A stretch of DNA of 64,000 nucleotides from Shigella phage SSG23, in the sequence record PQ351811. One strand, 5' to 3'. The notes beneath the pieces are model-generated. The model worked only from the letters and a program-made list of their open reading frames with translations. It was not told the DNA's origin and searched no databases. Within the stretch, counting starts at the first letter, position 1. Each line of letters starts with the position of its first letter. A program made the translations under genes and the position numbers. Of this stretch, positions 1,679 through 11,278 are shown in pieces.

Positions 1679-1920
1679 AAAGAAAATTAATTAAACGAAA
1701 TAAGGAATTGTTGAATAACTGCATTAAGGACGCTAATGGTTGGCCTTTGTTCCTCTTCCTTTATGATCGACATTCTAAACAATCGGCTGAGGAAGCACGA
1801 CACTATAAGAAGATCAGAAAAGAATCATATACAAAACAAGGACGCATTAACGGAATTTACTTAATGTGGCACGGCAAAGAACCTTCTAAAATCTGTGTTG
1901 GGTTAAAGGGGCGTATATGA
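1675..1920 (+). CDS. hypothetical protein (81 aa), GTG start overlapping upstream stop
   Basis: only a GTG start is available (GTGA overlap), ggggg upstream; basic protein; translationally coupled position. Confidence 0.35.
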   Translation: MKRKLIKRNKELLNNCIKDANGWPLFLFLYDRHSKQSAEEARHYKKIRKESYTKQGRINGIYLMWHGKEPSKICVGLKGRI

Positions 1921-2633
1921 AACAAAAATTAATATTCTGCAACTTTGACGGATCGGGGATAATGGGGCTAGAATGGGCTAAAGCAGGTCATAAGGTGATC
2001 TGCTTTAATGCGGATGACGCCGACCACGGTACATACAAAAAGTATAATACCAGATTTGAACATCCAAACATTACCTATGTAAACACCTGGATTGATTTGA
2101 ACTGGCTGGAAAGAGCAATGGACCTTGAATGGGGGAAACCGGATATTATATTTGCATTCCCACCTTGCACCAATTTAGCTGTTAGTGGCGCTGCACACTT
2201 TGAACGAAAGAAAAGAGAGCAAGGACCATTAATTCAAGTTCATGATGTAAGGGCAGCTAAAATAACAGCTTATTTGGGCGAATGGTTAGGAGTTCCCTAC
2301 ATGATAGAGAATCCTGTAAGCGTTATCTCTAGCATGTGGCGTAAGCCTGATTACATGTTCCACCCGTGGGAATATGGCGGTTATTTGCCGGAAAATGATA
2401 TACATCCTACGTTTCCTGAGTATATTGCCGCCCGTGATATGTACCCGAAAAAGACTTGCTTATGGACCGGACAAGGCTTTATAATGCCAGAAAAGAAACC
2501 GTTGCCGATTAATAAAGGGTACAGTAAACAGCATTCTAAGCTAGGCGGGAAAGGAACCAGAACAAAGACTATCAGGTCACTTACCCCGCGAGGATTCGCA
2601 AAGGCAGTATTTGAAGCCAATAAGGATCTATGA
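1917..2633 (+). CDS. C5-cytosine methyltransferase-like protein (238 aa)
   Basis: motifs in C5-MTase order: FCNFDGSG (motif I-like), FPPCTNLAVSG (PC motif with catalytic Cys), MIENP (ENV-like); short region after the ENV motif. Confidence 0.5.
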   Translation: MKQKLIFCNFDGSGIMGLEWAKAGHKVICFNADDADHGTYKKYNTRFEHPNITYVNTWIDLNWLERAMDLEWGKPDIIFAFPPCTNLAVSGAAHFERKKREQGPLIQVHDVRAAKITAYLGEWLGVPYMIENPVSVISSMWRKPDYMFHPWEYGGYLPENDIHPTFPEYIAARDMYPKKTCLWTGQGFIMPEKKPLPINKGYSKQHSKLGGKGTRTKTIRSLTPRGFAKAVFEANKDL

Positions 2634-2962
2634 TGAGATTGTTTAAGTATTCGCTAACGTCAAATTATGACAAACAAGGTCATTGTATCCGTTGCCCTGA
2701 TTGCCATAGTCATAACATCGAAAGCAAGATCCGTGATCATATTGATGGACTTTGGTCGCCAGCAAGCGAGATAGAATACTATTGCGCTGATTGCGGAATT
2801 GTAGTAGCATATTGGGCATACGGATCATATGATCCCTACTTCCAGATGGGAGAGCGTTCAATCCCTGCGCTTATCTGGAGAATTAAGAACAATATCCGCC
2901 ATTCATGGGATGAGTTCTTAAAAGATATTGATTTACGTGATGATCCATTCAGGAGACTATAA
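2630..2962 (+). CDS. zinc-ribbon protein (110 aa), possibly HNH-like
   Basis: CxxCxxC..H..H then CxxC in translation; ATGA overlap with upstream gene. Confidence 0.55.
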   Translation: MMRLFKYSLTSNYDKQGHCIRCPDCHSHNIESKIRDHIDGLWSPASEIEYYCADCGIVVAYWAYGSYDPYFQMGERSIPALIWRIKNNIRHSWDEFLKDIDLRDDPFRRL

Positions 2963-2963
2963 C

Positions 2964-3482
2964 ATGAACCGTTTGACGCCTAAACGCCGTTACTATACCA
3001 ATACTAAAAACTTTGTCATCTCTGTTTATGAGGCATGGTTAGAAGATGGCTATATCAACATGAACCCAGATTATCAGCGTCCTTTGGTATGGGACACCGA
3101 AAACAAACGTATGTTTATCGAGAACATGATTAATGACTTTCCGGTCGGCGCTATCGCAATGGCTAAGATTGATGATGGCTCTCGCTATGAAATCGAAATC
3201 GTGGACGGCAAACAGCGTTTAAACGCAATATTCTCATTCATGAAGGATGAGTTTAGCATTGCGGGTAATGATGATTCTATGCTGTATTACAGCGATTTTA
3301 CGCCAGCAGAAAAGCGACGTTTCCGCAATCTAGGACTACCAGCGATCATGATGGAAGAGAGCACACGAGAAGATCGATTAGAATATTTCTACAAAACAAA
3401 CTTTTTCGGTGTGCCTCAATCAGAAGATCATCGCCAGCATGTGATTGCCCTATTGCAAGATGAGCAATTAAAAAATAACTAA
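2964..3482 (+). CDS. DUF262 (ParB-like / GmrS N-terminal type) domain protein
   Basis: PDYQRPLVW and IVDGKQRL motifs; start moved to ATG 2964 with SD aggaga 7 nt upstream. Confidence 0.6.
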   Translation: MNRLTPKRRYYTNTKNFVISVYEAWLEDGYINMNPDYQRPLVWDTENKRMFIENMINDFPVGAIAMAKIDDGSRYEIEIVDGKQRLNAIFSFMKDEFSIAGNDDSMLYYSDFTPAEKRRFRNLGLPAIMMEESTREDRLEYFYKTNFFGVPQSEDHRQHVIALLQDEQLKNN

Positions 3483-3489
3483 AAAGTTG

Positions 3490-3519
3490 TTGACAGGGGA
3501 TCATCGATCCCCCTATAAT
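3490..3519 (+). promoter_or_regulatory. PeSL-like early promoter with spacer hairpin
   Basis: ttgaca 3490-3495, palindrome ggggatcatcgatcccc, tataat 3514-3519. Confidence 0.65.
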
Positions 3520-3551
3520 GCACACATACCGAAACGAAAGGAGAATCAAAC

Positions 3552-3731
3552 ATGAAACACTTAACCATCGAATCAGCAATCATCGCAATCGCTAAAGTTC
3601 AAGCGGCTTATAATTGCACTGACCTTGAAGCAATTTCAAAAATGCAAGCGGCAGCAGCAAAAGCGGGTGATGAAAAATCTTTAGATGTTCTCTGCGAAAT
3701 CAAATCAGAATTAATTTCAAAAATGTTCTAA
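3552..3731 (+). CDS. hypothetical small early protein (59 aa), not in ORF track
   Basis: ATG 3552 after leader aggagaatcaaac; stop taa 3729-3731. Confidence 0.55.
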   Translation: MKHLTIESAIIAIAKVQAAYNCTDLEAISKMQAAAAKAGDEKSLDVLCEIKSELISKMF

Positions 3732-3737
3732 AAGTTG

Positions 3738-3766
3738 TTGACACGCGATAGGGTGTATAGCATAAT
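3738..3766 (+). promoter_or_regulatory. PeSL-like early promoter
   Basis: ttgaca 3738-3743, cataat 3761-3766, leader tacacccataccgaaaca. Confidence 0.65.
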
Positions 3767-3806
3767 ACACCCATACCGAAACACGAACCACTAAGGAGTA
3801 TCAAAA

Positions 3807-4019
3807 ATGGCTAACATCGAAATCATCATCACCGACGTAACTTATGACCGCATCAACGAAATCGGTACTGCATTACTAGAAGATGGAACAACCCGCACCA
3901 TCAACTATGCAGAATACGTTGAAATGCGCGGTTGTATTAAACGAGTAGGAAAATACATCCTGATTGAAAAAGACTATTCAGGATACACATTAGAGCAATT
4001 ACTTGCTGGTGCATTATAA
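3807..4019 (+). CDS. hypothetical early protein (70 aa)
   Basis: ORF behind PeSL-like promoter; SD aaggag. Confidence 0.6.
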   Translation: MANIEIIITDVTYDRINEIGTALLEDGTTRTINYAEYVEMRGCIKRVGKYILIEKDYSGYTLEQLLAGAL

Positions 4020-4022
4020 TTT

Positions 4023-4046
4023 AAGGGGGCGTCAAGCCCCTTTTTC
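4023..4046 (+). terminator. rho-independent terminator
   Basis: aagggggc..gcccctt hairpin followed by ttttt. Confidence 0.6.
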
Positions 4047-4086
4047 ATAAATATAGGTTTATAGGTTATCAACTAGAGGATATAAA

Positions 4087-6138
4087 ATGTTTAACTTAGA
4101 AATCGACGATCTAATGATTGAATCTTTCGAGAAATGGCTGTTAACGGAAGAGGAAGAAAACTTTGGCAGCATTGCTCCGGTACAGTGCTTAAAGCCTAAA
4201 CAGAATCCAAAACAGCTTTTTGCAGTACAGACACGCGATAAAGATGTAATTGTCCGTCTTTGTAACTTCACCAACAAAACACCTAAAATTATTCGTGTTG
4301 GCGATAAAACCGCACACGTTGTACTGTGTGAAATGAACAAAAGCGGTCGTATTGTACAGCTTAAAAATGGTCTAGGCGATAACCCGATTGCAGTTATGGC
4401 AAGTGCTTTTGATGTGGTTATGGAAACAGCCCGTAAAGCGCAATTAGATGCTGTTATGTTCCGTTTTAACGTGTCCCGCATGAAAGGTAAAACCGAACTG
4501 GTTAAACGCGTTATAGAGCGTTTAGTGCGTCGTACTCCTAAGTTTGAAGTATTCCAGCAGGAAGTAATGACCAGCAAAAAGATCGCTTTGGTTGTTGTCA
4601 AGCGTCGCGGGATGGCGATTGATAAGATTAAAGGGATTAAACTTGATGAATCCTTGTTCACTAAAGTAGAAAGTGATTTAGGTGATCGCTGGGTATCTAA
4701 GGCTACTGGTGAATCTCTGACTAAAGATGAGGCGTATGCGGCTAGTCTTGTGTCGGAAGAAGAACGAAACGCGGAAGCAGAACAACGCGTAGCGGCTAAA
4801 TCTCGTTTGACTAAAGAAGAAATGCTGAAAACTCAAGCGACCTATAACGGTGATTATGTTAATCATCCAGAAAAAATTAACCTTAAACCGGAAGAGGATA
4901 TTACCGAAGCCGAACCTAAGAAACAGTTTAATACTCTGATCGATCGTCAAGCCTTAGAACGTTCAACCGCCCGTTCTTTGAATGATTGGACAAATGATAT
5001 TATCACTCGCTATGGTTTCATGCGTACTATTTTTGAAAGCGAAGCCGATGCAAAATACGCAGTAAGCGAACTGGTAAAAGTTCAGGATCAATATGATCCG
5101 TTGTCTGCGGAAGTTATCGCAGCATCAATCAAACGCTTAAAAGAAATCATGAATGAAGAAGTGTTTGAAAACAAGATCACCGCCCTAGCAATGGATCGCG
5201 TCGACCAGTCTATGCCAGCAGATGTAAAAGCTGAAATGCTGCGTAGTCACATCACGCAGATTAAAACCGATGCCCTACGTAATGTTGCTTCCGGTATGTT
5301 TGAAGCGATTGCAAGTAACATGGGTGAAATGATGGCAGATATTGATCTTGACCTGCCTGGCGCGGAAGGTTTTGTGTTGAGCGAATATGCGGATGCAGCA
5401 TACATCAATATGAACAACTTCCTAACCGACCGTAAGTTGGAAGAGTTTGACGGTATTGCAGACCCAGAAGAATTGGTCAAGATGTGTGATGCACTGGATA
5501 ATGCCTTCGCTAACTATGGTGTTAAACTTGATCCAGGTACTATCTTGTATCGTGGTATGGACTTCCGTTCTCAAATGTGGGAAACTGCACGTAAGCAAAA
5601 AGCGTTTTACTTTAAAAACTATGTAAGCACTTCCCTTGCACCTAATATTTTTGGTGGCTGGAATGCAAACGTGGCTAGTGCCGTTGCTGGTGTTGATTCT
5701 ATGGCGGGATCTCGCGGTGAAGGTGGCGCTAATGTTGCTTTCTCCATTGCTGGCGCGGAAAACATCCCTGTATTGCCAGTAGGTAACAAAGCATTTGCGT
5801 ACAAAGAATGCGAGATTTTACTTCCTCGCGGTGTTGTGTTATCCTTTGATACGGTAACTCGTGCTACGGCATCGACGGATTCACAAGAAACTTATTACAT
5901 TGAGGCACATATTATGAACAAAAATGAACTGGCAGCATTACAAGAATCTGGTGAGATGATCGCGGACGGTGATGCATTCATCCGTGAAGGTGTTGTTAAA
6001 CCTGCTTCTGACCTGTCTTTCTCCAGCTTCATTACCGAAGCTAAAACCGAACGTAAGAAAGCAGATAAGGCAACTCTACGTCAGCTTATCGCTGATCTGG
6101 TATCTGTAGACGCTATGCCAGATAAATTTAAAATGTAA
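4087..6138 (+). CDS. alt: Alt-like ADP-ribosyltransferase (683 aa)
   Basis: R-S-ExE motifs (YRGMDFR, YVSTSLAP, ECEILLPRG); T4 Alt is about this size; lies next to gene 54 as in T4. Confidence 0.8.
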   Translation: MFNLEIDDLMIESFEKWLLTEEEENFGSIAPVQCLKPKQNPKQLFAVQTRDKDVIVRLCNFTNKTPKIIRVGDKTAHVVLCEMNKSGRIVQLKNGLGDNPIAVMASAFDVVMETARKAQLDAVMFRFNVSRMKGKTELVKRVIERLVRRTPKFEVFQQEVMTSKKIALVVVKRRGMAIDKIKGIKLDESLFTKVESDLGDRWVSKATGESLTKDEAYAASLVSEEERNAEAEQRVAAKSRLTKEEMLKTQATYNGDYVNHPEKINLKPEEDITEAEPKKQFNTLIDRQALERSTARSLNDWTNDIITRYGFMRTIFESEADAKYAVSELVKVQDQYDPLSAEVIAASIKRLKEIMNEEVFENKITALAMDRVDQSMPADVKAEMLRSHITQIKTDALRNVASGMFEAIASNMGEMMADIDLDLPGAEGFVLSEYADAAYINMNNFLTDRKLEEFDGIADPEELVKMCDALDNAFANYGVKLDPGTILYRGMDFRSQMWETARKQKAFYFKNYVSTSLAPNIFGGWNANVASAVAGVDSMAGSRGEGGANVAFSIAGAENIPVLPVGNKAFAYKECEILLPRGVVLSFDTVTRATASTDSQETYYIEAHIMNKNELAALQESGEMIADGDAFIREGVVKPASDLSFSSFITEAKTERKKADKATLRQLIADLVSVDAMPDKFKM

Positions 6139-6155
6139 TTTTTAAGAAATAATGG

Positions 6156-6196
6156 TTGACTCAAACGGGGACTAGTTTTATACTAGCCCCGTTTTC
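6156..6196 (+). promoter_or_regulatory. terminator hairpin overlapping a sigma70-type promoter
   Basis: ttgact 6156-6161, tatact 6179-6184; hairpin cggggactagt/actagccccg followed by tttt. Confidence 0.55.
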
Positions 6197-6216
6197 TGTT
6201 ATATGGGAGGTTTAAA

Positions 6217-7041
6217 ATGTTCAAGAAATTACAGGATTTTCGCCTTTCAGAAGAATCACGCGAATCAATGATGGAACGTATGGATAATTACATCGAAACA
6301 TATGGCATTGAGGGGATTAATGGTTACATGATCACTGAAATGATCAGCGATCATATTAACTTTGATGATTACGTGAAAGTTATCCGTTTCCTTGAGCGCG
6401 AGACGCAAGATTATGGATTTGTCAAGAAGATCATTAATGTTATGTACGAAGTGCAATCCGAAGACTTTGGAGACAGTGTATTCAAGCATTATGGTCATAC
6501 CAATCTTACACCAGCAGAATATAATGCAATCTGTGATTATGTGTCTGAACAATACGAATGGGTAAATGGTGCTCTCTTAGGGGAAGAAGACATGACCGAC
6601 GAGATATCAGAAATTGTTGATTTGATGGATTGCGTCATGGATAAAACCGAAAAGTTAAACGGTACTCTTTATCGCGGTCAACATCTTGACATTCAGACAA
6701 TAGAGCGTATTATTGAAGATAAGGAATTTACATTTAAAAACTTTGTATCGACCAGCATGACACCGATCATCTTTGGAGGCTGGCTTTCAAACAGCACTAG
6801 CCTTTATTGTGAGAATCGATATGAATCAATGACCGGAAAGATGCAACATTCTTGTAATGTATCATGGGTAATTGACGTAAAAGATCATAAAGGTTTTGTT
6901 GTTGGGTCAATTGCATGGAATCCTTGCGAATGTGAAGTAATTTTACCGCGCGGGACTTGCATCAAGGTAAACGACGTAGTAGAATCTTTCGGCGATGAGA
7001 ATCGTAGACAATTTACAATTTTCGGTGAGGTGACTAAATGA
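6217..7041 (+). CDS. second ADP-ribosyltransferase, short Alt/Mod-like paralogue (274 aa)
   Basis: R-S-ExE motifs (LYRGQHLD, FVSTSMTP, ECEVILPRG); SD gggagg. Confidence 0.7.
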   Translation: MFKKLQDFRLSEESRESMMERMDNYIETYGIEGINGYMITEMISDHINFDDYVKVIRFLERETQDYGFVKKIINVMYEVQSEDFGDSVFKHYGHTNLTPAEYNAICDYVSEQYEWVNGALLGEEDMTDEISEIVDLMDCVMDKTEKLNGTLYRGQHLDIQTIERIIEDKEFTFKNFVSTSMTPIIFGGWLSNSTSLYCENRYESMTGKMQHSCNVSWVIDVKDHKGFVVGSIAWNPCECEVILPRGTCIKVNDVVESFGDENRRQFTIFGEVTK

Positions 7042-7523
7042 AAATGGTTAAACTGATTGGTCTTGCGGCTGCATTCATGCTTACTGGTTGTGCTAACATG
7101 GAAGCTATGATGAATGCTAAATCAGATCCGGTTTTCTTGCTTCGTGAATGTAAAGCAGCATATGCAAGCGATGATCAGATCGAATCATGCTTTATTTCTA
7201 AAATGGAACGTCGAGACGTGGATCGCGTTAAAGTTGGTTTAGCACCACAAACGCAGATGTTCAAAGATGCAATCAAAGAAGCGCGGGAAGAGAAAGCACG
7301 AGAAGAAAAGAAGCGTCAAGAAGAATTGCGCAAGCAACAAGAAGAGTCTATACAACTTGAGAAGATGAAAGCAAGGGATCGTTGTATTATCATGTCTGAC
7401 ATGCAGATAGAACAAGAAGCTAGAAAGGCAGCATTGAACGGTGATTATGACCGTTATGAAGAACTTAACAGCGCAGAGTTTCAAGCTAAGGCACTAAAAT
7501 ATTGCAATGATTTAGCAAAATAA
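7038..7523 (+). CDS. lipoprotein with charged coiled-coil region (161 aa)
   Basis: signal peptide with lipobox LTGC; KEAREEKAREEKKRQEELRKQQEE tract; ATGA overlap with upstream gene. Confidence 0.6.
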   Translation: MKMVKLIGLAAAFMLTGCANMEAMMNAKSDPVFLLRECKAAYASDDQIESCFISKMERRDVDRVKVGLAPQTQMFKDAIKEAREEKAREEKKRQEELRKQQEESIQLEKMKARDRCIIMSDMQIEQEARKAALNGDYDRYEELNSAEFQAKALKYCNDLAK

Positions 7524-7550
7524 AAAGGCGGGGATTATCCCCGCCTTTCG
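7524..7550. terminator. bidirectional terminator between convergent genes
   Basis: ggcggggattatccccgcc hairpin flanked by A-run and T-run. Confidence 0.65.
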
Positions 7551-7554
7551 CTTA

Positions 7555-8487
7555 TCAGAACCAGTTAGTGACAGTATTCACCACACGCCCACCAACGCCA
7601 TTTAGACGCGATAAAGCATTACCAGCAGCAGATAACCCACTATCAAGTAAATTGTTGCCGAAAGTGTTTGTTATTGCGTTTATTGCCTTATCCTCAATCC
7701 ATTCCCGCGCGGCTTGCTCTCCTACAGCACCAGTTTGCATAGAACGATATGCAAAAGTAACATCGAATGTTGTGATTTCGTTGTTATTTTCATAGGTTAA
7801 TTCCGGTGCACTCACACCAACAGGAACACAACCATTAAACATCATGATCGTGTGAGGAACTCCCATTCGGTTATGCAAGTTGACCTGAATATCTGCTTCA
7901 ACGTCAACAGGAAGCGCACGAAGCCCTGTAACGGGGTCTTCTACTGAGTTAACCCAATCCTGCATTGCTCTATAGTTTGATGCGCTAGAGTCCATTCTAA
8001 AGCTCAATACAAGCGGATCAAAATCACGTCCGGTAATTCTAATGTTTGGCGCATTGTGGTTACGGTCCATTTCATAACTCAATCTGTTTTCTGGAACCTT
8101 AACAGCATACACCAGAAGACCGCTTGTCTTATATGCCATATTGAACCAGTCAAGCGCATATGTACCAACATCAAATTGTCCCAGAAGAGATTGAACTACA
8201 CGAGATGACATTGCACCCAAAAGATACTTTTTGACACCGGATGAATCAACAGCACGCCTAACACCCTGTACAGCAAGATTAGTTAATGCGTCAGTATAAT
8301 CACCGCGAGTAATCCCGAAATAGTCATTTAATGCATTTGGTATAATATCATATACCGCACCGCCCATACTTTCTAGGATCGCTTGTGTCTTATTACTTGG
8401 AGTGGTGGCAAATGCCACGCTGAATAAGTTAGATCGCTGAAAGTCAAGGTTAGCGGCTTGTTCGTTAAAATCATTTAAATCAAACAT
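7555..8487 (-). CDS. 54: baseplate tail tube initiator gp54
   Basis: size and position in 29-48-54 order as in T4; ATG verified. Confidence 0.75.
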   Translation of the reverse strand: MFDLNDFNEQAANLDFQRSNLFSVAFATTPSNKTQAILESMGGAVYDIIPNALNDYFGITRGDYTDALTNLAVQGVRRAVDSSGVKKYLLGAMSSRVVQSLLGQFDVGTYALDWFNMAYKTSGLLVYAVKVPENRLSYEMDRNHNAPNIRITGRDFDPLVLSFRMDSSASNYRAMQDWVNSVEDPVTGLRALPVDVEADIQVNLHNRMGVPHTIMMFNGCVPVGVSAPELTYENNNEITTFDVTFAYRSMQTGAVGEQAAREWIEDKAINAITNTFGNNLLDSGLSAAGNALSRLNGVGGRVVNTVTNWF

Positions 8488-9545: not shown

Positions 9546-11278
9546 TAAAAGTTCCCCATATTAATTGTACCGGGGGCATCAATTCTAGTTGTTGGTGCAC
9601 CCTGTTTAATAGTTCTATTGTTTGTTACAATCTGTGTATTATTTACGTTTGAGGTCTGATTTGTCGTTTGTTGCTGGATTGCAGCTTGTTTCTGCATTTG
9701 TTCAGTACGTTCCGCTTGTTTTGCTGTTTCCGTTTCAGTTGCCGGAACTGGCTGTGTTTGCACAACACCCTTAGTTTTATCAGCATACATCTCATCAAAT
9801 TTTTCAATAAGACGCTCTAACTGAGAACGATCACTTTCAACTAATGTAGGATCTTGAACTTTCTCACGGTAAACATCAATATCCTTTTTCAACTCTCCCA
9901 TTTTTTCTTTGTCATAATCACCGCTCAAGTTCTCCATAACTTCATTAATATTATTGATCGCGCCCTCGCTTTTAATTCTAAGTTTACGACTAGCAGATCG
10001 TTGTTCAGCAGAAACAGACTCATACTCCCCGCGCTTTAATTCTTCTTGTCGTTTCTCTTCGTCAACATCCTTTTGATCTCTCCAACCCAGACTAACAAGA
10101 CCTTCGTTAACTTTATCCTTAATAGAATCACCGATAGCTTCGCCAATATCACGGGCTTTTCCGGTCCAACCAGTACGCTCTCCGTATTTGTCCTCTTCGT
10201 GTTCAGACTCGACCTTATCCATTAATTCGAGTTCTCTTTCGTTTGGCGTATAGCCTTGAGCGACAGCAGATTTTAAAGCACCATATTCTAACTTATCGGC
10301 ATAATCACCCATACCAGGGATCATGCGAAGAATTTTAGCAATACCAGTAGTGATAATTCGATCAAGTTGGATAAAGGTTTTATAGAATGCATCACCAATA
10401 CCCATAACAAGAGATTTAATTAATTCTCCATATTCGCCTTTAGACCAATAATCTCGAACTTGACGAATAGTTGTTAGAATATCACTAATTGGTCCAGCCC
10501 ATTCTCCGGCCTTATCCATAAATTCATCGAATTTTGTTTCGAATAAATCACTCCAATATCTGAAATGAATCATCAGGGTATCAATGGCAAAAACAATACC
10601 CATCAAAATAGCGCCCCATTTTGCGGCTTCTGCCATAGCGGTCAAGGTGATCTTAAATAACATCCCTAAGACCTTATTAGAGATACCTATGGTTTCTTTA
10701 AATCCTCCACGAACAACTTTAAGAAGATTTTCCATAGAATCCGCATTACGCTTATCTGCGGCGTTCTTTTTCTTCCGTTCCTCAACATCTGGTTTTTTCT
10801 TTGGAAGACCTTGATAGTTGTCATTATTAGGCTGTTCCGGTACAGTAGGCAAAACTGGCTGAGGTGATGGCATTGTTTGCGGTTGTTCCGGTTTTTTCAG
10901 TGCTTCTTCAATCGCACCAATACCGCTAGCCATTTTACTGACAACACCAAATCTACGTTCCATCATAACACCAAAACCACGTAATTTCTCATTCATCTGA
11001 GAAGAGAAATTATTGAGTTTTTGCAATTCTTCATAAGTTTTTTGGGTATTGCCAGCGGTAGATTGGGTATTCTCTGCCGTCAATTCATTGGCTGCGGTGT
11101 TATCCTCTACCGCACCAACAACTTCATTAGATTTTTGTTCTACTGTCTCCGCCACCAATTCGGTAGCGGCTTGCAAATTATCAATAGAATCAAGTTTATC
11201 TAATTTGTTAAGTTTATCAATCGGGTTTTCTTCCGCTTCCTTGCGCATCCCGCGAAATGATGTTAATGCGTCATTCAT
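9545..11278 (-). CDS. 29: baseplate hub / tail length determinant gp29
   Basis: T4 gene order and size (577 aa). Confidence 0.75.
   Translation of the reverse strand: MNDALTSFRGMRKEAEENPIDKLNKLDKLDSIDNLQAATELVAETVEQKSNEVVGAVEDNTAANELTAENTQSTAGNTQKTYEELQKLNNFSSQMNEKLRGFGVMMERRFGVVSKMASGIGAIEEALKKPEQPQTMPSPQPVLPTVPEQPNNDNYQGLPKKKPDVEERKKKNAADKRNADSMENLLKVVRGGFKETIGISNKVLGMLFKITLTAMAEAAKWGAILMGIVFAIDTLMIHFRYWSDLFETKFDEFMDKAGEWAGPISDILTTIRQVRDYWSKGEYGELIKSLVMGIGDAFYKTFIQLDRIITTGIAKILRMIPGMGDYADKLEYGALKSAVAQGYTPNERELELMDKVESEHEEDKYGERTGWTGKARDIGEAIGDSIKDKVNEGLVSLGWRDQKDVDEEKRQEELKRGEYESVSAEQRSASRKLRIKSEGAINNINEVMENLSGDYDKEKMGELKKDIDVYREKVQDPTLVESDRSQLERLIEKFDEMYADKTKGVVQTQPVPATETETAKQAERTEQMQKQAAIQQQTTNQTSNVNNTQIVTNNRTIKQGAPTTRIDAPGTINMGNF

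Follow-up and report, generated by a model that had tools for sequence, protein, structure and literature searches.

A tandem alt duplication followed by a polymorphic predicted lipoprotein gene in Shigella phage SSG23: a proposed block of two transcription units

The window analysed here is a 64,000-nucleotide stretch of DNA from Shigella phage SSG23 (sequence record PQ351811; all coordinates refer to this stretch), which is a Krischvirus, that is, a T4 relative of the RB49/JSE/GEC-3S type, with 99.9% identity to Shigella phage SFHK24. Positions 4087 to 7523 hold three genes: alt, for an orthologue of the T4 protein Alt; a shorter paralogue, here called ART2, for a second ADP-ribosyltransferase (ART); and a gene for a predicted lipoprotein. 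We consider it fairly probable that this block consists of two transcription units, that an old tandem duplication of alt lies at its core, and that the product of the last gene has a role at the cell envelope. New in this account are the domain map of ART2, the proposed insulation of late from early expression by a promoter set within a terminator, the strict operon of ART2 and the lipoprotein gene, and the recombining cassettes of an orphan lipoprotein. The ART pair itself has little discovery value, being annotated and having been listed as an alt duplicate in 2006. The features of the block are as follows.

4023-4045, plus strand: intrinsic terminator upstream of alt (hairpin 4023-4043 followed by a T-run; RNAfold -13.5 kcal/mol; annotated as a terminator in GEC-3S)
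4046-4053, plus strand: late-promoter-like box CATAAATA, matching T4 TATAAATA at 7 of 8 positions, about 33 nucleotides before the alt ATG
4087-6138, plus strand: alt, open reading frame (ORF) of 683 amino acids
6156-6184, plus strand: predicted early sigma-70-type promoter of the ART2-lipoprotein operon, GTTGACT (-35, RB49-type GTTGAC), 17 nucleotides, TATACT (-10)
6163-6201, plus strand: terminator hairpin (6163-6194) with U-run UUUUCUGUU; the -10 box lies in its loop and 3' arm
6217-7041, plus strand: ART2 (equivalent to RB49ORF183c), ORF of 274 amino acids
7038-7523, plus strand: predicted lipoprotein (equivalent to RB49ORF182c), ORF of 161 amino acids
7095-7506, plus strand: exchangeable cassette that covers the mature portion of the lipoprotein gene, delimited by the blastn break against phage 011D4
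7523-7549, both strands: bidirectional intrinsic terminator of the ART2-lipoprotein operon and gene 54 (12-bp stem, -19.6 kcal/mol)
7555-8487, minus strand: gene 54, for the tail-tube initiator of the baseplate (PHROG 45, PF06841, public annotation); it converges on the block and delimits it

The three ORFs lie exactly where a sequence-only reading of this DNA had placed them, with the lengths it had given. That reading also set alt next to gene 54; the identity of alt stands, but direct adjacency does not, as two small genes intervene.

Expression signals of the block

The -10 box of the promoter upstream of ART2 lies inside a terminator hairpin, and this arrangement is conserved in four deep lineages, namely the window and lineages L007, L019 and L017, in the last three of which ART2 is 40-44% identical to that of the window. 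The promoter itself scores 10 of 12 matches in a promoter scan, is annotated as such in GEC-3S and coincides with the early promoter Pe:112388 listed for RB49 by Nolan et al. 2006 (PMC1524935); a TTGAC(A/T)-17-TAT(A/G)(C/A)T arrangement is retained in L007, L019 and L017. Folded lineage by lineage and compared with 200 shuffles per lineage, the hairpin is far more stable than expected, with 0 of 200 shuffles as stable in any of the four. The stems differ in the three other lineages and the U-run stays the same.

Window: -18.9 kcal/mol, z -5.9, 5' stem arm CGGGGACTAGT
L007: -17.8 kcal/mol, z -6.0, 5' stem arm CGGGGATCAGT
L019: -17.4 kcal/mol, z -4.9, 5' stem arm CGGGGAACAGT
L017: -19.7 kcal/mol, z -6.9, 5' stem arm CGGAGGCATC

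Such an overlap would provide a compact, conserved means of separating late from early expression in neighbouring genes. Transcripts arriving from alt would be stopped by the hairpin at 6163-6201, whereas those starting at about position 6191 would contain only its 3' arm, escape termination and run into the bicistronic operon, so that ART2 and the lipoprotein would be confined to the early phase. The same segment is touched by an annotation discrepancy in L017, where the public call for the ART2 homologue starts 36 nucleotides too early (L017:1530-1565, MMSPFSVIGRFK...): the added stretch contains the -10 box and the hairpin, and the start that matches the other lineages is the ATG of MFSVDW.

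At the 5' end of the block, the terminator at 4023-4045 appears to end the upstream early transcription unit. Its RB49 equivalent is found by TransTerm at 114488-114504 (Nolan et al. 2006, supplement, PMC1524935); lineage L007 keeps it with a different stem, and the layout in T4 is the same. Directly after it stands the box CATAAATA, which we tentatively regard as a late promoter. The canonical TATAAATA occurs nine times in the window on the minus (late-gene) strand and not once on the plus strand; T4 itself has TATAAATA at the homologous site, right after a terminator of the same type, and lineage L007, in which Alt is 45% identical, has AATAAATA at the homologous site before alt. Late expression of alt is likely on these signals.

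At the 3' end, the terminator at 7523-7549 is annotated on both strands in GEC-3S and appears in the TransTerm list for RB49 as '54-><-RB49ORF182c' (Nolan et al. 2006, PMC1524935); beyond it, the minus strand carries the convergent late genes 54, 48 and 29. A further sigma-70-like site, TTGACA-16-TATTAT (11 of 12 matches), lies within ART2 at 6686-6713 on the plus strand, about 325 nucleotides before the lipoprotein start. It might allow transcription of the lipoprotein gene alone, or be a chance occurrence (16 promoter-like sites in the region against 11 expected).

Alt, ART2 and the alt duplication

The 683-amino acid protein is an orthologue of T4 Alt, as had been proposed from its motifs, size and position. 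It aligns colinearly with T4 Alt over its whole length (BLASTP residues 31-681 against 15-679, 26% identity, E 3e-59), matches PHROG 802 'Alt-like' with residues 16-683 on positions 2-674 of 674 (E 1e-178), and scores 37.2 bits against PF03496, for which the curated cut-off is 23.4 bits; homologues in related contigs combine PF26846 (Tevenvirinae_ADPRT N-terminal region) with PF03496. The catalytic motifs are LYRGMDFR (R489, codon 5551-5553), YVSTSLAP (S514-T515-S516, codons 5626-5634) and ECEILLPRG (E574 and E576, codons 5806-5814), and these residues are invariant among the Alt proteins of the window, T4 and lineage L007. The ratio of nonsynonymous to synonymous substitution rates (dN/dS) of alt among close relatives is about 0.03. 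T4 Alt is an arginine-specific mono-ADP-ribosyltransferase that is packaged in the virion and injected. By orthology, late synthesis of the alt product, its packaging into heads and its entry together with the injected DNA are probable, and it would then ADP-ribosylate arginines of host proteins, RNA polymerase alpha being an expected target, as the next infection begins. Processing by the prohead protease would likewise be expected of a T4 Alt orthologue; a literature search for virion proteomes of Krischviruses yielded nothing useful.

The second ART, ART2, seems to be a stripped-down but catalytically intact relative of Alt. It scores 56.9 bits against PF03496 (residues 82-266) and matches PHROG 15144 'ADP-ribosyltransferase' with an E-value of 2e-192. 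Its motifs are LYRGQHLD (R153, codon 6673-6675), FVSTSMTP (S178-T179-S180, codons 6748-6756) and ECEVILPRG (E238 and E240, codons 6928-6936); like those of Alt they are present in the sequence as first quoted, far beyond chance. The R, S-T-S and E-x-E residues are invariant in family alignments down to 40% identity, and the motifs are recognizably kept in the homologues of metagenomic lineages L017, L018 and L019. In profile-profile comparison (hhalign, 99.9% probability), residues 67-273 of ART2 correspond to residues 397-610 of Alt; in a separate comparison ART2 matches T4 Alt at 413-593. ART2 thus corresponds to Alt without its N-terminal ~390 residues and its C-terminal tail, and the description of its N-terminal region as unrelated to Alt was overstated: at most the first ~66 residues are without detectable similarity. 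The AlphaFold (AF2) model is confident, with a predicted local distance difference test score (pLDDT) of 86.7 and a predicted template modelling score of 0.85. Its best Foldseek matches are Vis, C3, Certhrax, iota/CDTa and Tre1 (E 3e-11 to 1e-9, with a probability of 1.00 to Vis, C3, iota and Tre1), and the sequence shows weak matches to Tre1 and SpvB; a sequence search of the PDB found no structure of Alt or Mod. The E-x-E form of the motif, unlike Q-x-E, predicts arginine specificity in ARTs, and ART2, which carries no signal peptide, would be a cytoplasmic, newly made, arginine-specific mono-ART that modifies host targets early.

Other T4-like phages carry second copies of alt that have obviously decayed, and ART2 could by the same token be an inactive remnant, like alt.-1/alt.-2 of T4. 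This we regard as highly improbable: the catalytic residues, including the glutamates on which the call had been made to depend, survive in relatives that share only 40% identity, the protein keeps a constant length of 271-288 amino acids, the fold model is complete, and the gene has its own conserved promoter and a Shine-Dalgarno sequence (GGGAGG, 6205-6210). Because dN/dS is about 0.05 among close relatives, ART2 appears to be a maintained gene rather than a decaying one. It is 95-100% identical in 58 of 58 Krischvirus records, and apparent variants at 60-80% identity proved to be an artefact of joined pieces. A scan of IMG/VR with ART2 returned two close loci only.

The tandem pair is already known and annotated, though uncharacterized, and is not a new discovery: RefSeq records name the ART2 gene 'ADP-ribosyltransferase', and Nolan et al. 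2006 (PMC1524935) list RB49ORF183c, T4 alt.-1/alt.-2 and 44RR ORF188c as paralogous alt duplications, with ORF187c of the Aeromonas phage 44RR as a full-length duplicate. The T4 alt.-1/alt.-2 products match the N-terminal part of Alt (window 4165-4464). A Tequatrovirus-like metagenomic contig, L021, carries at 4183-6248 a second alt copy split into an ORF of 273 amino acids, which corresponds to the N-terminal region of Alt (PF26846), and an overlapping one of 415 amino acids, which holds the ART domain and the Alt tail. This split copy lies between alt and an alt.-3 homologue, after which gene 54 follows, and looks like an intermediate between a full duplicate and the T4 remnants. Together with those of T4, 44RR and RB49, this copy shows that tandem duplicates of alt are widespread in the alt-54 gap and that their decay takes different courses; Krischviruses kept only the catalytic core of the second copy.

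The alignment with ModA and ModB that had been proposed as a check places ART2 with Alt; with the Mod enzymes it aligns only around E-x-E. T4 ModA and ModB are 12% and 10% identical, respectively, to the Alt domain of the window in a joint alignment. Membership of ART2 in the ModA/ModB family was rejected on its 99.9% match to Alt 397-610 and on its location outside the srd-mod region. In RB49 the modB homologue is RB49p014, which adjoins srd away from ART2, and T4 ModA has no match in RB49. With Alt, ART2 and the ModB homologue and no ModA, the genus therefore appears to have three ARTs, as T4 does, but a different set.

The lipoprotein and its allele cassettes

The stop codon of ART2 overlaps the start codon of the third gene in an ATGA, as first described, and GAGGTG precedes the start, a configuration in which translation of the lipoprotein would be coupled to that of ART2. 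The order Alt-ART2-lipoprotein-gp54 is clear in three of four divergent metagenomic lineages, and the short contig of the fourth, L018, is consistent with it; the ART2-lipoprotein junctions in these lineages are -8, -4, -1 or +1 nucleotides, with a GAGG Shine-Dalgarno sequence.

The signal peptide (7038-7091) begins with MKMVK as its n-region, continues into a hydrophobic core and closes with the lipobox LTGC, in which Cys18 is encoded at 7089-7091. It agrees with a PROSITE-style lipoprotein rule (K/R within the first 7 residues, an uncharged h-region, lipobox Cys18), as do the other listed LTGC alleles. Under the Lol sorting rule, a residue other than Asp at position +2 after the lipidated cysteine directs a lipoprotein to the outer membrane. 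Since the window has Ala at this position, and every allele has Ala, Ser or Thr and never Asp, the protein is predicted to be sorted to the outer membrane; it would be exported, lipidated at Cys18 and placed on the inner leaflet of that membrane. The assignment as a lipoprotein, first made from the lipobox, was reached independently by the authors of the W115 annotation, who label the orthologue 'putative lipoprotein' in a paper whose methods include LipoP and SignalP, and UniProt names the orthologue of KFS-EC 'Lipoprotein'.

The AF2 model of the protein (pLDDT 88) is all-helical, with helices at residues 31-41, 45-65, 72-133, 137-143 and 146-160. The mature protein has 143 residues, of which 62 form a central helix rich in Glu, Arg and Lys. 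All family members keep the lipid cysteine and two further cysteine pairs (five cysteines), the second pair at a constant spacing of 40 residues, and in the model of the mature protein a helix of ~9 nm links two small helical modules that disulfides would staple. The 'highly charged coiled-coil' of the sequence-only reading is borne out as a charged helix; it could as well be a single stable helix as a coiled coil. Length variants of -5 (P0006), -15 (P0032) and +11 residues (P0033, a tandem duplication of EEESRKENKHQ) occur at residues ~85-105 of the central helix (window ~7290-7350) in alleles that are otherwise 77-94% identical, which suggests that the length of this spacer is adjustable.

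Outside its own family, the protein is an orphan. It belongs to PHROG 16112, of unknown function; it falls in no family of Pfam or NCBIfam, where weak NCBIfam matches cover the signal peptide only; the best fold match in the PDB has an E-value of 0.9, BFVD returns its own family only, and the weak similarity of the model to tape-measure proteins comes from long helices alone. The name 'outer membrane protein assembly factor', which a submitter gave to P0039, finds no support in any search. Clustered at 90% identity, the family amounts to 39 clusters in a set of 5.8 billion proteins, and a profile search of 1.84 billion representatives returned 10 members and one spurious match. In a 230-kb search, residues 75-139 also gave a local match of 33% identity (E 0.002) to the gp29 tape measure (window 9908-10123, minus strand), with the charged stretches EEKKRQEELRK and DEEKRQEELKR aligned. 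This resemblance is probably one of composition, and no covariation of gp29 with the lipoprotein allele is seen in 011D4.

The mature part of the gene behaves as an exchangeable cassette, with alleles about 30% identical set in genomes that share 97-99% identity to either side of it. Against phage 011D4, blastn aligns the window at 95-98% up to position 7094 and resumes from 7507, with no alignment between, and the signal peptide and the terminator that flank the cassette are conserved. The identities of the encoded proteins to those of the window are as follows.

011D4: Alt 99%, ART2 97%, lipoprotein 32%, gp54 99%, gp48 99%, gp29 99%
JK32: Alt 99%, ART2 95%, lipoprotein 29%, gp54 87%, gp48 76%, gp29 53%
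L007: ART2 44%, lipoprotein 38%, gp54 82%, gp48 81%, gp29 47%
L019: ART2 40%, lipoprotein 29%
L017: ART2 40%, lipoprotein 23%, gp54 69%, gp48 73%, gp29 39%

Three classes of allele were counted over the 58 phage records that match window positions 3500-8000 at >=90% identity (that is, at least 90%; SFHK24 is the best match): class A in 50 records, the window included, class B in six (011D4, E26, PHB13, G37-3, PTE-Eco09 and AV108) and class C in two (JK32 and Whisky). The metagenomic allele P0038 is a mosaic: its signal peptide is of type A, its N-terminal part resembles class C and its C-terminal part class B. Because class A is under purifying selection (dN/dS 0.09) and A and B have diverged as deeply as lineages that differ by 18-31% in gp54, the polymorphism appears to stem from recombinational exchange of old alleles via the conserved flanks and not from rapid local change. 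Polymorphism of this kind would be typical of genes in conflict.

The cassettes also bear on whether ART2 and the lipoprotein form a functional pair, as toxin and immunity protein or enzyme and partner, which would explain adjacency and coupling. In every lineage examined the two genes adjoin or overlap, even where ART2 is 40% and the lipoprotein 23% identical, and ART toxins often have an immunity gene next to them, as in Tre1-Tri1, Tre1 being a fold match of ART2. However, the cassette is exchanged while ART2 stays 95-97% identical, so that there is no allele-specific co-evolution, and this independence argues against a specific interaction between the two products. Their predicted compartments differ as well, ART2 lacking a signal peptide and the lipoprotein being exported, and the lipoprotein has no similarity to ADP-ribosylhydrolases or macro domains. 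A functional pair is accordingly very improbable.

Envelope role and comparison with known systems

What, then, does the lipoprotein do? With modest confidence we favour the view that this predicted early, envelope-placed, polymorphic lipoprotein acts in superinfection exclusion at the level of the envelope, which had been suggested from the sequence alone along with envelope remodelling, or in envelope protection, in a manner not tied to the long-tail-fibre receptor. A competitive role in the envelope is suggested by the predicted early expression and envelope site, the recombining diverged alleles and the lack of a recognizable Imm or Sp: a tblastn search of RB49 and the window gave no match to T4 Imm (~14 kb of RB49 being covered only by the near-identical window), and for T4 Sp the same search gave only a spurious match (E 0.064) inside gene 41. 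A more specific proposal, which we hold to be possible but doubtful, is that ART2 and the lipoprotein form an early operon for 'host takeover plus envelope defence' of the Krischvirus-like clade, with the lipoprotein as a new exclusion or protection factor. The rigid charged helix, of adjustable length, would position a head stapled by disulfides at a fixed depth within the periplasm; the head would intercept a component of the incoming phage, and the alleles would define exclusion groups, filling the role of T4 Imm and Sp.

Several points weigh against an early unit with an envelope role and against its late counterpart. Timing, packaging, targets, localization and the exclusion role are all inferred for this block. 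Pe:112388 scores weakly, at 9.3, where promoters nearby reach 30-39. Upstream of alt, the lists of Nolan et al. (PMC1524935) include the terminator and no late promoter, which is why late expression of alt is put no higher than likely. The B and C alleles of the lipoprotein (LNGC and INGC) fail the strict PROSITE rule, at position -2 only. The adjacency of ART2 and the lipoprotein gene could merely reflect vertical inheritance in one clade. The fold shows no resemblance in the PDB or BFVD to the known exclusion proteins Llp, Cor and Sp, and the alleles covary neither with the type of gp38 nor, in 011D4, with gp54, gp48 or gp29.

The result for gp38 bears also on another explanation, in which the lipoprotein acts in the manner of T5 Llp or Cor: as a mask, it would bind the outer-membrane receptor of its own phage, block readsorption and protect progeny from debris, with alleles matched to the receptor. 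T5 Llp has the same general properties, as an early outer-membrane lipoprotein of a virulent phage, and the protein considered here is likewise a predicted early outer-membrane lipoprotein with polymorphic alleles in a virulent phage. Yet each of the three allele classes is combined with either type of gp38 adhesin: the RB49 type is found with class A (RB49, JSE), class B (AV108, PTE-Eco09) and class C (Whisky), and the ~82% type with class A (SFHK24, GEC-3S), class B (011D4, E26, PHB13) and class C (JK32), in a comparison that is coarse, being based on whole-protein identity and confined to gp38, with gp37 and gp12 outside it. Across Krischvirus records, a mask matched to the adhesin allele is thus unsupported; the gene is also not beside any receptor-binding gene, and the all-helical fold has no PDB or BFVD match outside its own family. 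We regard a receptor mask as unlikely. As to the adhesin itself, the gp38-type gene of RB49 (L011:45367-46143) is located among the early genes and on their strand, ~100 kb from the tail-fibre genes gp34-37; gp38 falls into two allele types among Krischviruses (>=95%, that is, at least 95%, and ~82% identity), and the gp38 proteins of some Tequatroviruses are 76-90% identical.

Equally unlikely, in our estimate, is that the lipoprotein serves not phage-phage exclusion but the control of lysis, as an accessory of the spanin or lysis-inhibition type, or that it is a structural tether which changes the spacing between outer membrane and peptidoglycan. A helix of ~9 nm is comparable in length with Braun's lipoprotein, and the combination of such a helix with an outer-membrane lipoprotein, together with the heavy investment of T-even phages in lysis timing, speaks for this explanation. 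On the other side, the gene follows an early promoter away from the lysis genes, the protein has no C-terminal membrane segment, and deep allele polymorphism is unusual for a housekeeping component of lysis. An o-spanin in particular was rejected, because RB49 has its own spanin pair (pseT.2/pseT.3), holin and rI elsewhere; an i-spanin partner is also missing from the neighbourhood.

Upstream of the block, the early cluster holds a DNA methyltransferase gene (1917-2633, plus strand) among small ORFs of unknown function, with several strong GTTGAC-type early promoters between genes, for example at 3490-3519 and 3738-3766. An ORF of 184 amino acids in this region (2928-3482, plus strand; 'DUF262 domain protein' in the W115 annotation) resembles GmrSD type IV restriction enzymes in their N-terminal DUF262/ParB-like domain alone (PF03235, E 1e-19). 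Such a truncated GmrSD-like protein is curious in a T4 relative with cytosine DNA, and could be a decoy or an inhibitor. A two-piece match that suggested a 2.4-kb insertion relative to SFHK24 was rejected, the SFHK24 record being colinear with the window.

With regard to the ARTs, the block offers a natural experiment, in which one catalytic domain would exist in a packaged and injected form and in a stripped-down early form, in a genus without ModA; comparing the targets of Alt and ART2 would show how much of the specificity of Alt resides in its non-catalytic regions. A more useful lead is offered by the lipoprotein. Phage-therapy cocktails make use of Krischviruses, and which phages co-infect or exclude each other could depend on a polymorphic envelope protein made early; the three allele classes in otherwise near-identical genomes amount to nearly ready-made isogenic comparisons.

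Set beside T4, the 683-amino acid protein shares with Alt its colinearity throughout, the R-S-ExE residues and a conserved C-terminal ...MPxKF tail, and its gene shares the neighbourhood of the alt-54 gap and the upstream layout of a terminator followed by a late box. It differs in being only 26% identical and in the late box, which is CATAAATA here and TATAAATA in T4; and whereas T4 has alt.-1, alt.-2 and alt.-3 before gene 54, the block described here has what appear to be two functional genes. The second copies of alt in T4 (alt.-1/alt.-2), in 44RR (ORF187c) and in the Tequatrovirus-like contig resemble ART2 in lying directly downstream of alt and in their origin by tandem duplication. By contrast, only N-terminal, non-catalytic remnants are kept in T4 and both halves and the C-terminal tail of Alt in the split copy; ART2 would have kept the catalytic core, with ~66 unmatched N-terminal residues, and gained its own early promoter.

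In T4, alt belongs to the late genes, and the ModA and ModB proteins are made early (PMC9697503); the timing proposed for ART2 would resemble that of ModA and ModB. Like ModA and ModB, ART2 is a small, stand-alone protein with R-S-ExE residues, predicted to be expressed early from a sigma-70 promoter and not to be packaged, but it is unrelated to them by sequence and clusters with Alt. The best structural matches of its model, the C3, Vis, iota-VIP2, Certhrax and Tre1 toxins, are only 15-21% identical and are secreted or injected toxins, whereas ART2 would be an early protein of a phage; C3 moreover has Q-x-E where ART2 has E-x-E. The lipoprotein, finally, resembles T5 Llp, Cor (T1/phi80/N15) and T4 Sp as a phage product predicted to be early and placed in the envelope, with a polymorphism that suggests conflict. 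It shares neither sequence nor fold similarity with them, it is larger (143 mature residues) and all-helical with a long charged helix, and its gene differs from theirs in being unlinked to a receptor-binding gene and in varying independently of gp38.

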